A stretch of 64,000 nucleotides of DNA from an uncultured Bdellovibrionales bacterium (GCA_964484195.1 CAZAER010000001.1:285510-349509); one strand, 5' to 3'; counted from the first letter of the stretch, positions 31,976-35,758 are shown. The notes: generated by a model from the letters alone, not told the origin. Program-made: numbers and translations.

Positions 31976-34900
31976 ATGAGCAGCTTTGGTGCAAATTCCG
32001 GTTTCGTCGATGAGCTCTACGCGCGGTATCTCGAAGACCCGCAATCGGTCGGCGAGTCCTGGCAGGAGTTTTTCGCGGACTACAAACCGGCCGGCGGTAA
32101 TCCAGCGCCGCGCGCCACCGCCAACGGGGCTCACGCCCAGAACGCCGCCCCGACCGTCATCGCCCCCGCGACTGGCCCCGTCGTCTCCTCCGGCGCCGCC
32201 GCGAGCGTCGTTCCCACCGGCCACGTGCCCGCTATAGCGACCAAAGCGCAGCCGCAAGTGCCGCCGCCGCAGACCGAGCATCCCGACGCCGAGCCGCTCA
32301 AGGGCATCGCCGCCAAGATCGCCGAGAACATGGTGACGAGTCTGCACGTGCCGACCGCCACCAGCGTGCGCTCGATTCCGGTGAAGCTCCTCGAGGAGAA
32401 CCGCAAGCTCATCAACGCCCATCAGTCGGCGACGAGCGGCGCCAAGGTCTCGTTCACGCACATGGTCGCCTACGCGCTGCTGCGCGCCATGGAGAAGCAC
32501 CCCGGCATGAACGACGGCTACGTCGAGCGTGACGGCAAGCCGCATCGCGTGCATCGCAAGGTCGTGAACCTCGGCCTCGCCATCGACCTCGAGCGCAAGG
32601 GCGAGCGCGTCCTCTTGGTGCCGAACATCAAGGACGCCGGTCGCCTCAACTTCCTCGAGTTCGTCGCCGCCTACGACGACATCGTTGCGCGTGCGCGCAA
32701 CAACAAGCTCGCCGTCGACGAGTTCCAGGGCACGACCGTCAGCATCACGAACCCCGGTATGATCGGCACGCAGCTGTCGGTGCCGCGCCTCATGGAAGGG
32801 CAGTCCGCCATCTTCGGCATCGGCAACATCGGCTTCCCCGCCGAATACGCCGGCATGTCGAACCAGGTGATCAGCGAGCTCGGCCTGTCGCGCACCATGA
32901 CGATCACCAGCACCTACGACCACCGCGTGATTCAAGGCGCGGAGTCCGGCGGCTTCTGCCGTGACGTCGAGAAGCTCTTGCTCGGCGACGATCGCTTCTA
33001 CGTGAAGATCTTCGACGAGCTCGACGTGCCCTACGAGCCGCTCGCCTGGGCCGGCGACCAGAACGTCGAGGTCTTCGGCGGCCGCGACATGGACGCCATC
33101 CGCAAGCAGGCGCACGTGCTGCAGCTCATTCGCGCGCACCGCGTTCGCGGACACCTCTACGCACACCTCGATCCGCTCTCCATCGAAGCACCGCAGCTCC
33201 ATCCCGAGCTCGAGATGTCGAAGTACGGGCTCACCGTCTGGGATCTCGACCGCCAGTTCATGGCCGGCGAGCTCGCGGGCTCCAAGGCGCCGATGCCGCT
33301 CCGCGACATCATGGAGACGCTGCGCGAAACGTACTGCCGCCACATCGGCGTCGAGTACATGCACATCCCCTACGTCGAGCAGCGCGACTGGCTGCAAGCG
33401 CGCATGGAGTCGTCGCGCAACGCTACGGCGTTCACCCCCGACGAGCAGCAGCGCATCTTGAAGAAGCTGAACGCCGCCGAGGCATTCGAGCGCTTCCTGC
33501 ACACTACCTACGTTGGCCAGAAGCGCTTCTCGCTCGAGGGCGGCGAGACCCTCATCCCGATGCTCGACTTCCTCCTCGAGGATGCCGGCAAGGTCGGCGT
33601 CACCGCGGCGGTCATCGGCATGGCCCACCGCGGCCGCTTGAACGTGCTCGTCAACACCGTCGGCAAGAAACACGAGAACGTCTTCCGCGAGTTCGAAGGC
33701 GAGATGGATCCGGGCATCGCCCACGGCTCGGGCGACGTGAAGTACCACCTGGGATCGCTCGGCAAACACGTCACCGAGAGCGGTGAGACCGTCAGCGTCT
33801 CGCTCGCGAGCAACCCGTCGCACCTCGAGGCCGTGAATCCGGTCGTCGAGGGCATGGTGCGCGCGATGCAAGACATCGACGGCGACGTGAAGCGCGAGAA
33901 GACCATCCCAATCCTCATCCACGGCGACGCCGCGTTCGCGGGGCAGGGCGTCGTGGTCGAGACCCTCGGCATGTCGCAGCTCAACGGTTACCGCACCGGC
34001 GGCACCGTGCACATCGTGGTGAACAACCAGATCGGCTTCACCACCGGCGCGAAAGACGCGCGCTCGTCGCTGTACTCGACCGATGTCGCTAAAGCGGTGC
34101 ATGCGCCGATCTTCCACGTCAACGGTGACAATCCCGAAGACGCCGTGCGGGTCATGCGCCTCGCGTTCGCCTTCCGCCACCAGTTCAAGCGTGACGTGGT
34201 CATCGACCTCGTCTGCTATCGCCGCTGGGGTCACAACGAAGGCGACGACCCCTCGTACACCCAGCCGCTGGTGTACCAGCGCATCGAGAACCACCGCTCG
34301 GTCCGTAAGATCTACACCGAGCAGTTGCTCCGTCGTGGTGACCTCGACGCGACCTCCGCCGAGAAGGCGCTCGATGATTTCCGCGTCCAGCTCCAGGGCA
34401 TTCACGACGCGGTGAAACAAGCGCAGCAACCCAAGCCGCAGTCCGTCGCGCGCGACCGCGAAGACGAGCGTGGCGTCGGTGTCGAAGCCGACGGAGTGGT
34501 GACGGCGCCGTCCGAGGAGAACCTCGGCCTCGTGCTCGATGGCCTCGAGCGGCCGGTCGAGGGCTTCGAGCCGCATCCCAAGCTGGTCAAGCAGCTCGCC
34601 AAGCGTCGCGAGCGCTACGACAGTGGCAAGATCGACTGGGCGCTCGGCGAGGCCCTGGCGTTCGGCTCGCTCGTCCTCGAAGGCAACCCTGTCCGCTTGA
34701 GCGGTGAGGATACGGGCCGCGGCACCTTCAGCCAACGTCACTGCATCCTCTATGATCACCGCACCGGCACGCCCTACATCCCCCTGAACAACCTGCAGCA
34801 GGGTCAGGCGAACTTCTCGTGTTACGACTCACTGCTCTCGGAGTTCGGCGTTCTCGGCTTCGACTACGGCTACTCGGTGAACTACGCGAAGGCGTTGGTC

Positions 34901-35758
34901 ATGTGGGAAGCGCAGTTCGGCGACTTCGTGAACGGCGCCCAGGTCATCATCGATCAGTTCATCTCGAGCGGTGAGCAGAAGTGGAACCAGAAGTCCTCGG
35001 TGGTCATGCTCTTGCCGCACGGCTACGAGGGGCAGGGGCCGGAGCACTCGAGCGCGCGCATCGAGCGCTTCTTGCAGCTCGCGGCCGCCGGTAACTGGCG
35101 CGTTTGCTACCCGACGACGCCGGCGCAGTACTTCCACCTCTTGCGGCGCCAGGTGCGCAGCGAGCAGCGTAAGCCCTGCGTGGTGTTCACCCCGAAGTCG
35201 CTGCTACGCCATCCCGACGCGGTGTCCGCCAAAGAGGAGCTTCTCTCCGGCAGCTACATGCCGGTGATCGGCGACTCGTCGGTGAAGGACGCGAACGGGG
35301 TCACGCGCGTGGTCATGTGCAGCGGCAAGATCTACTACGATCTCGACGCCGCGCGCCGCGAGAAGAAGCTCGAGAACGTCGCCATCGTGCGCCTCGAGCA
35401 ATATTACCCGTTCCCGGCGGAGCAGCTGCGCGCGCAGCTCGAGACCTACGCCAACGCGACGGAAGTGCTGTGGGTGCAGGAAGAGCCGCGCAACATGGGC
35501 GCCTGGGACTTCGTCGACGAGCGCCTCTTGGCACTGCTCTATCAGGGCCAGACCTTGCGTTACGTCGGCCGGCCCTCGGGCTCGTCGCCGGCCACCGGCT
35601 CGTCGAAGCGTCACGCCGCCGAGCAGGCAGCGGTCATCACCGAGGCTCTCGAAGGCGAGGGCAAACCGGCGCTGGCTCACGGTCAGAAGGTCATCGAGAC
35701 CCGCGACAAGCAGCCGCAGCCCCAACCCCAGTCGCAGCCGACTCGGGCCGCTGGATAA
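31976..35758 (+). CDS. kgd: Multifunctional 2-oxoglutarate dehydrogenase E1 component with fused N-terminal E2-type acyltransferase catalytic domain (Kgd/OdhA type)
   Basis: GAGAAGG RBS. The N-terminal region carries the 2-oxoacid dehydrogenase acyltransferase catalytic domain (...TYDHRVIQGAESGGF). The full SucA-like E1 follows, with the ThDP-binding region (GMAHRGRLNVL, HGDAAFAGQGVV) and the transketolase-like C-terminus. At 1260 aa the length matches actinobacterial Kgd/OdhA. Confidence 0.9.
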   Translation: MSSFGANSGFVDELYARYLEDPQSVGESWQEFFADYKPAGGNPAPRATANGAHAQNAAPTVIAPATGPVVSSGAAASVVPTGHVPAIATKAQPQVPPPQTEHPDAEPLKGIAAKIAENMVTSLHVPTATSVRSIPVKLLEENRKLINAHQSATSGAKVSFTHMVAYALLRAMEKHPGMNDGYVERDGKPHRVHRKVVNLGLAIDLERKGERVLLVPNIKDAGRLNFLEFVAAYDDIVARARNNKLAVDEFQGTTVSITNPGMIGTQLSVPRLMEGQSAIFGIGNIGFPAEYAGMSNQVISELGLSRTMTITSTYDHRVIQGAESGGFCRDVEKLLLGDDRFYVKIFDELDVPYEPLAWAGDQNVEVFGGRDMDAIRKQAHVLQLIRAHRVRGHLYAHLDPLSIEAPQLHPELEMSKYGLTVWDLDRQFMAGELAGSKAPMPLRDIMETLRETYCRHIGVEYMHIPYVEQRDWLQARMESSRNATAFTPDEQQRILKKLNAAEAFERFLHTTYVGQKRFSLEGGETLIPMLDFLLEDAGKVGVTAAVIGMAHRGRLNVLVNTVGKKHENVFREFEGEMDPGIAHGSGDVKYHLGSLGKHVTESGETVSVSLASNPSHLEAVNPVVEGMVRAMQDIDGDVKREKTIPILIHGDAAFAGQGVVVETLGMSQLNGYRTGGTVHIVVNNQIGFTTGAKDARSSLYSTDVAKAVHAPIFHVNGDNPEDAVRVMRLAFAFRHQFKRDVVIDLVCYRRWGHNEGDDPSYTQPLVYQRIENHRSVRKIYTEQLLRRGDLDATSAEKALDDFRVQLQGIHDAVKQAQQPKPQSVARDREDERGVGVEADGVVTAPSEENLGLVLDGLERPVEGFEPHPKLVKQLAKRRERYDSGKIDWALGEALAFGSLVLEGNPVRLSGEDTGRGTFSQRHCILYDHRTGTPYIPLNNLQQGQANFSCYDSLLSEFGVLGFDYGYSVNYAKALVMWEAQFGDFVNGAQVIIDQFISSGEQKWNQKSSVVMLLPHGYEGQGPEHSSARIERFLQLAAAGNWRVCYPTTPAQYFHLLRRQVRSEQRKPCVVFTPKSLLRHPDAVSAKEELLSGSYMPVIGDSSVKDANGVTRVVMCSGKIYYDLDAARREKKLENVAIVRLEQYYPFPAEQLRAQLETYANATEVLWVQEEPRNMGAWDFVDERLLALLYQGQTLRYVGRPSGSSPATGSSKRHAAEQAAVITEALEGEGKPALAHGQKVIETRDKQPQPQPQSQPTRAAG

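Follow-up and report, generated by a model that had tools for sequence, protein, structure and literature searches.

The stretch of DNA analyzed here, 64 kb in length and referred to below as the window (GCA_964484195.1, CAZAER010000001.1:285510-349509), comes from an uncultured bacterium and contains a kgd/odhA-like gene for a putative 2-oxoglutarate dehydrogenase in which the succinyltransferase (E2o) and the thiamine diphosphate (ThDP)-binding dehydrogenase (E1o) are fused. The gene is a single ATG-initiated open reading frame (ORF) of 1260 codons at positions 31976-35758 of the plus strand (stop codon included), with the purine-rich sequence AGAGAAGG lying 3 nt 5′ of the start codon, and its identification is based on the ORF itself, on the NCBIfam profile NF008907 and on full-length alignment to 8p5r and 8p5t. 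Analysis of the 1260-aa product, all domains of which are encoded on the plus strand, showed an N-terminal helical segment of E1o (aa 4-37, 31985-32086; PF16078, 2-oxogl_dehyd_N, E 2.8e-13), followed by an Ala/Pro-rich flexible linker that is apparent in the translation and has no Pfam match (aa 38-102, 32087-32281), and then by the E2o succinyltransferase catalytic domain (aa 103-335) together with an amphipathic helix at its C-terminal side (aa ~336-349) that contains Phe341, which jointly occupy positions 32282-33022. The catalytic domain was recognized by residue conservation and by its match to PF00198 (2-oxoacid_dh; E 7.5e-48), which spans model positions 4-224 of 232. The E1o part comprises the ThDP-binding dehydrogenase domain E1_dh (PF00676; aa 498-821, 33467-34438), to which residue mapping assigns the ThDP motif GDAAFAGQG...NNQIGFTT and His551, His591, and His753; the transketolase-like pyrimidine-binding domain Transket_pyr (PF02779; aa 885-1078, 34628-35209), where alignment to E. 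coli SucA and OdhA and residue counts place LLPHGYEGQGPEHSS with both of its histidines; and the 2-oxoglutarate dehydrogenase C-terminal domain OxoGdeHyase_C (PF16870; aa 1084-1225, 35225-35650), after which the translation ends in a 35-aa Gln/Pro-rich tail. Neither a Biotin_lipoyl (PF00364) nor an E3_binding (PF02817) domain was detected in the 1260-aa protein by Pfam at E <= 0.01.

All five Pfam domains are present on one polypeptide in the order found in OdhA, and this order (2-oxogl_dehyd_N, 2-oxoacid_dh, E1_dh, Transket_pyr, OxoGdeHyase_C) is the family criterion of Bruch et al. (bioRxiv 10.1101/2020.07.24.212647). In addition, the protein scored 1771.3 bits against NF008907, the Kgd/OdhA equivalog with a cut-off of 878, over profile positions 12-1240 of 1241. 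By every sequence-level criterion tested, we assign the window protein to the OdhA/Kgd family. The ORF call and Pfam also bear out an earlier account of this DNA, the sequence-only reading, which had placed a 1260-aa fused E2-E1 ORF at these coordinates, with a complete SucA-type E1 and an N-terminal E2 catalytic domain marked by the motif TYDHRVIQGAESGG, found here in the translated protein.

Compared with the canonical SucA of E. coli, the E1o of the window protein is homologous throughout (853 bits) and has in common with it the motif of the N-terminal helix, that of ThDP binding, and the active-site histidines; it differs in that the chain of E1o is interrupted behind the N-terminal helix by the E2 catalytic domain. 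This inserted domain is a homologue of the SucB catalytic domain, but comes without the lipoyl and E3-binding domains, and no sucB follows. The N-terminal helix of OdhA/KGD and of canonical E1o has been linked to docking with the other components of the complex (PMC10415282; bioRxiv 10.1101/2020.07.24.212647), and by analogy the helix retained in the window protein may serve the same role. The Thermoleophilia ‘full fusion’ LB-PS-E2-E1 (bioRxiv 10.1101/2020.07.24.212647) likewise has the E2 catalytic domain upstream of E1o; it retains lipoyl and E3-binding domains and has no 2-oxogl_dehyd_N helix, whereas the window protein shows the reverse.

Conservation of Active Site and Regulatory Residues

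The list of residues to be compared was taken from the OdhA cryo-EM paper (PMC10415282), the chain numbering of 8P5T being the native numbering plus 2. The window protein gave full-length colinear alignments with M. smegmatis KGD (8P5R), at 1251 bits, and with C. glutamicum OdhA (8P5T), at 1198 bits, colinearity extending over ~1220 residues, and it shares with OdhA (PDB 8P5S-8P5X) and KGD (8P5R, 2XT6) the domain order, the lack of lipoyl and peripheral subunit-binding domains, the catalytic residues on the list, the Ser/Tyr pair that selects for succinyl, the Phe in the PCI-like helix, and the stand-alone gene. In the E2o site, the equivalents of OdhA Ser129, Tyr233, Thr258, Ser268, Tyr314, His316, and Gln320 were all conserved (S130, T258, S268, Y314, H316, and Q320 among the window residues); in OdhA, Ser129/Tyr314 select for succinyl and His316/Gln320 form the E2o catalytic dyad (PMC10415282). 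When 100 members of the clade to which the window protein belongs were compared, T258, S268, Y314, H316, and Q320 were invariant, and at the equivalent of Ser129, 97 had Ser and 3 had Thr. OdhA Phe340, located where E2o meets E1o in the PCI-like amphipathic helix, corresponds to window F341 and is Phe in 91 of the 100. In the E1o site, OdhA His543, His583, and His747 are matched by H551, H591, and H753, the GDA...NN ThDP motif is conserved (D651, N683), and so are the two histidines of PHGYEGQGPEHSS, H1015 and H1024, either of which is a candidate for the equivalent of OdhA His1017. Overall, the residues checked were mostly invariant across the 100 clade members, with the Ser129, Tyr233, and Phe340 equivalents and the ThDP-motif Asn varying in a minority. 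This pattern is what would be expected if selection maintained decarboxylation as well as succinyl transfer.

Actinobacterial OdhA and KGD are inhibited by the forkhead-associated (FHA) proteins OdhI and GarA, whose docking surface is helix alpha-E with elements close to it (PMC10415282). Compared with OdhA/KGD, the FHA-contact residues on helix alpha-E of the window protein are partly conserved, so actinobacterial-style regulation should not be assumed. The phosphomimetic Asp is present as D801 and is conserved in 65 of the 100 clade members, and the FHA-contact positions vary in all groups, the Actinomycetota included. The sequence-only reading had suggested that a GarA/OdhI-like regulator may be encoded elsewhere in the genome; for the window itself, Pfam scans of most ORFs showed no FHA-domain, PknG-like, or lipoyl protein among them.

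Phylogenetic Position and Distribution of the Fused Enzymes

Neighbor-joining trees of the E1 region were built from corrected p-distances over 846-848 columns, the first rooted on E. coli SucA and the second on five E1o sequences, from E. coli, Acinetobacter, Ruegeria, Paraburkholderia, and Cytobacillus. In the second tree the fused proteins were monophyletic and apart from the five canonical SucA sequences in 189 of 200 bootstraps, which answers the comparison of SucA and Kgd clades that the sequence-only reading had proposed: the E1 part of the window protein groups with the fused enzymes. The trees indicate that the E2o-E1o fusion arose once. The clade containing the window protein is free of Actinomycetota (199/200), and the Actinomycetota, together with one sequence carrying a Gammaproteobacteria label, form a clade of their own (152/200) that is sister to one Acidobacteriota metagenome-assembled genome (MAG; 187/200). 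Among the best 120 database clusters, which are 54-97% identical to the window protein, all 120 carry the E2 catalytic and the E1o Pfam domains, and none of those relatives that were included in the tree fell inside the actinobacterial clade; a look-up of the exact protein sequence had no match on record. These data point to substantial non-actinobacterial diversity in the fused family and argue that the window gene is no recent import from the Actinomycetota, an ancient transfer between phyla, in either direction, being possible. The term ‘Actinobacteria-type’ used in the sequence-only reading is apt for the Kgd/OdhA architecture, and understates a distribution that takes in a large, deep clade from uncultured non-actinobacterial lineages.

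Relative to OdhA and KGD, the window protein is distinguished by a non-actinobacterial host and by its placement in this separate, well-supported clade, and its identity to Actinomycetota genome sequences is ~50-54% among the matches listed. It also differs from the actinobacterial enzymes in a 5-residue insertion, VEADG (aa 836-840), that is typical of non-actinobacterial sequences. The C-terminal 360 aa (aa 901-1260, 34676-35758) score 392 bits to E. coli SucA versus ~330 to OdhA/KGD, and aa 1037-1131 are 59% identical to E. coli SucA versus a mean of 50% to actinobacterial sequences. Chimerism was considered as an explanation and rejected, since segment-wise identity and indels show a single SucA-closer segment (aa 1037-1131) and no block-wise switch; the pattern, which gives no sign of recombination, suggests that the actinobacterial branch diverged more around this segment.

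Two individual sequences deserve mention. The Gammaproteobacteria-labeled MAG sequence in the actinobacterial clade lies on a 6-kb contig (JBLIMF010000165.1), and its fused Kgd nests tightly with Ilumatobacter (Acidimicrobiia) in both trees; the contig is probably misbinned, and a gammaproteobacterial OdhA is the less likely explanation. A member of the window clade on a 430-kb sequence (ENA ERZ27251177) adjoins PSCyt2/PSD1/DUF1501 genes and a gene for a 2453-aa TIG-domain protein, and with such neighbors the non-actinobacterial clade would seem to extend over several phyla.

Composition, Synteny, and Host

The relative synonymous codon usage of kgd correlates with that of the other window genes at r = 0.987, the highest value of 34 genes, and its GC content at third codon positions (GC3) is 0.891, the mean for the window being 0.845 (sd 0.033) and the GC content of the window being uniform at 62-68%. 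The comparison of GC3 and codon usage with the neighbors, which the sequence-only reading had called for, revealed nothing foreign about the gene. In a relative with ~80% identity on an 86-kb ENA contig (L081, in ERZ26871208), the order ychF-spoU-kgd-Rieske-ABC-OpuAC...dtd-ybaK-GT22 is kept, and no synteny was found with relatives deeper than L081. On this evidence kgd appears to be a native, vertically inherited chromosomal gene, and the sequence-only reading’s alternative of horizontal acquisition is contradicted, as far as a recent event is concerned, by the native codon usage and GC3, by the synteny with L081, and by the position of the protein outside the actinobacterial sequences.

The closest labeled relatives of the window PurA are Myxococcota or ‘Deltaproteobacteria’ MAG proteins with 62-80% identity. 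For Kgd, the closest labeled relative among the matches listed is from a Myxococcota MAG (58%), and further labeled relatives are from Deltaproteobacteria RIFOXYA12_FULL_58_15 (59%) and Ca. Polarisedimenticola (60%); the genome-collection matches listed are at most 58% identical and mostly Actinomycetota at 50-54%. One relative, on a 2.2-Mb contig, adjoins a resistance-nodulation-division (RND) pump with an outer-membrane factor. Going by the database labels, the host is probably a diderm, Myxococcota-affiliated uncultured lineage. An actinobacterial host is contradicted by the labels of the PurA relatives (Myxococcota and Deltaproteobacteria) and by a Kgd clade devoid of Actinomycetota (199/200).

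Absence of an Adjacent E2 Gene and Predicted Lipoyl Supply

When all window ORFs of at least 80 aa were searched with E. coli SucB using phmmer, the fused gene was the sole match in the 64 kb, and the same search (ORFs >= 80 aa) found no separate E2 within ~10 kb of the fused gene in 17 related loci, actinobacterial or not, which include Nocardiopsis, Streptomyces, and Acidimicrobiia. Pfam scans of most window ORFs showed no FHA, lipoyl-E2, E3 (dihydrolipoyl dehydrogenase), or Ser/Thr-kinase gene, and no E2, E3, FHA, or kinase partner gene stood beside the fused gene in five metagenomic contexts with precomputed Pfam annotation or in the 17 loci. Because no separate E2 lies near the fused gene either in the window or in these loci, a stand-alone gene without an adjacent E2 is the norm of the family and not an anomaly. 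The sequence-only reading was right that the next gene encodes a Rieske oxygenase (PF00355 and PF19112, 35768-36817) and not an E2, and the weight it gave to the missing downstream sucB falls away with the finding that 0 of 17 related loci have one.

The E1o part would be expected to carry out ThDP-dependent decarboxylation of 2-oxoglutarate followed by succinylation of a lipoyl-lysine, and the fused E2o domain would then, in trimeric form, pass the succinyl group to CoA. With no lipoyl domain present in the polypeptide itself, a lipoyl arm has to come in trans. In the characterized enzymes, lipoyl groups are supplied in trans by E2p, the E2 of the pyruvate dehydrogenase (PDH) complex (PMC10415282; bioRxiv 10.1101/2020.07.24.212647), and PDH E2 would be the most likely donor here as well, as in Corynebacterium and Mycobacterium, with re-oxidation of the lipoyl group by an E3 encoded elsewhere. 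Both the enzyme activity and the trans donor are predicted from residues and domain content. The ~50% identity to 8P5T and 8P5R would in addition be consistent with a homohexameric ‘three-blade propeller’ assembly of E2o trimers and E1o dimers.

Genomic Context of kgd

The window looks like ordinary chromosome, with pyrD, gltX, speA, sua5, fdhD, ychF, spoU, dtd, ybaK, purine genes, and an SNF2 helicase, and kgd itself is flanked by ychF, spoU, dtd, purine genes, and gltX; the speA gene noted in the sequence-only reading was located at 15122-17044 on the minus strand. The Rieske [2Fe-2S] and VanA_C-type oxygenase gene (35768-36817, plus strand) starts 10 nt after the kgd stop codon, keeps its adjacency to kgd in L081, and is probably co-transcribed with it. 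A promoter and terminator scan around kgd gave nothing above chance. The oxygenase gene is followed, within 35768-39001 on the plus strand, by genes for a ProV-like (OpuA-type) ABC ATPase and for an OpuAC protein in which substrate-binding and permease parts are fused. These genes are separated or overlap by at most 10 nt, apart from one 60-nt overlap, an arrangement also present in L081. The best NCBIfam match of the Rieske protein is 4beta-methylsterol monooxygenase (88 bits, far under the cut-off of 600), and these genes may form a module for quaternary-amine uptake and oxidation.

On the other side of kgd, the ~1 kb separating it from spoU (30900-31975) holds a 281-aa ORF at 30980-31825 (plus strand) with a coding-like GC3 of 0.81 and no Pfam or NCBIfam match. 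This ORF is absent from L081, where spoU abuts kgd, and the stretch looks like a lineage-specific insertion directly 5′ of kgd. Farther away, two large coding-like ORFs without a Pfam match lie on the plus strand, one of 614 aa at 4205-6049, which also lacks an NCBIfam match, and one of ~1134 aa at 6049-9453. The full gltX lies at 9450-11021, and positions 22092-23264 (plus strand) encode a further, short protein with the catalytic domain of class-I Glu/Gln tRNA synthetases (PF00749, E 1.5e-29); this second protein has no anticodon-binding domain, occurs at the matching place in L081, and may be a paralogue of the GluQRS/YadB type. A near-complete purine cluster occupies 46622-59213 on the minus strand (purA, purB, purD, purH, purN, purM, purF, purL, purQ, and purC), and no tRNA genes were found in the 64-kb window.

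Discussion

Taken as a whole, the data make it likely that the window gene encodes a fused E2o-E1o enzyme that would work with lipoyl and E3 functions supplied in trans, that it is a native, vertically inherited gene, and that it belongs to a deep clade without actinobacterial sequences. Several points weigh against this interpretation. The trees are distance-based, with Pyrinomonadaceae basal in just 79 of 200 bootstraps and the deep order of the fused clade and the Acidobacteriota lines poorly supported; the taxonomy of the host is drawn from the labels that databases give to MAG proteins, with PurA as the one marker next to kgd itself; and the FHA-contact positions are partly conserved, the OdhA/KGD Glu801 equivalent being Gln807 and the Arg/Ser802 equivalent Gly808.

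That a Gram-negative host recently acquired an actinobacterial kgd/odhA might be suspected from the fact that most genome matches listed are Actinomycetota with 50-54% identity. Among the matches listed, actinobacterial identity does not exceed ~53-54%, whereas relatives with Myxococcota or Deltaproteobacteria labels and unlabeled metagenomic ones, from these matches and the database clusters together, attain 58-66%, and the composition of the gene, which is indistinguishable from that of its neighbors, its chromosomal position shared with L081, and the exclusion of all Actinomycetota from its clade leave such an event highly improbable. We hold it just as improbable that the E2-like domain has degenerated to a purely structural remnant, leaving a protein that serves only as an E1o for a separate E2o. 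An early crystal structure of truncated MsKGD, which was monomeric with an apparently non-functional E2o-like domain, would fit a remnant, whereas full-length OdhA has since been shown with an E2o trimer that is active (PMC10415282). The Pfam match of the window protein covers nearly the whole PF00198 model and all E2o catalytic and substrate-binding residues are conserved; with both active sites preserved, decay of the E2 is improbable.

The protein could also be a side-function paralogue standing beside a canonical sucAB, acting as a lipoyl-independent 2-oxoglutarate decarboxylase that forms succinic semialdehyde or as a 2-hydroxy-3-oxoadipate synthase, two activities that the ‘multifunctional’ label of mycobacterial Kgd includes. 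To our knowledge, cultured Myxococcota use canonical sucAB, which counts in favor of a paralogue, as do the NCBIfam name of NF008907, ‘multifunctional oxoglutarate decarboxylase/dehydrogenase/succinyltransferase’, which lists several activities, and the absence of a lipoyl donor or E3 from the 64 kb in the SucB phmmer search and the Pfam scans of most ORFs. Against this, the E2o dyad and Tyr314 are invariant in the 100 clade members and the Ser129 position is almost always Ser; a conserved dyad together with the succinyl-selecting Ser/Tyr speaks for selection on succinyl transfer to CoA, for which a lipoyl arm is needed. The docking helix is retained and the gene sits among housekeeping genes, and we regard a paralogue as unlikely. 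The reading of the window gene as a native 2-oxoglutarate dehydrogenase with a lipoyl arm in trans is the one we prefer.

Part of this is already known, in that the NCBI annotation pipeline names such MAG proteins correctly, as standard pipelines would the window gene, and no new mechanism is involved; what is mildly new is the evidence for native status in a non-actinobacterial lineage and for a deep, well-populated non-actinobacterial clade. In the structural literature, the OdhA/Kgd fusion and the mixed complex that joins PDH with 2-oxoglutarate dehydrogenase (ODH) are treated as a hallmark of the Actinobacteria and form part of the rationale for M. tuberculosis drug targets, and a search of the accessible library for work linking OdhA/Kgd to Acidobacteria or Myxococcota found no such paper. 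A more tentative suggestion, which we put forward with some doubt, is that the fusion is no actinobacterial invention and represents an old, single-origin architecture of diderm phyla (Acidobacteriota, Myxococcota-like, and others), of which the Actinomycetota are one branch. If this were true, the hybrid PDH/ODH supercomplex would also occur in Gram-negatives, with a trimeric E2p bearing the Phe insertion and perhaps with FHA-type control, and the direction of any transfer between phyla would become a question. For complete genomes of these lineages the predictions are a single lipoylated E2p with the three-residue Phe insertion, no sucB, and possibly an OdhI-like FHA regulator. A native copy in a probable Myxococcota-like bacterium, catalytically intact as judged by its residues, and 100-plus distinct relatives from non-actinobacterial metagenomic lineages show that the architecture is wider than finished genomes had indicated.

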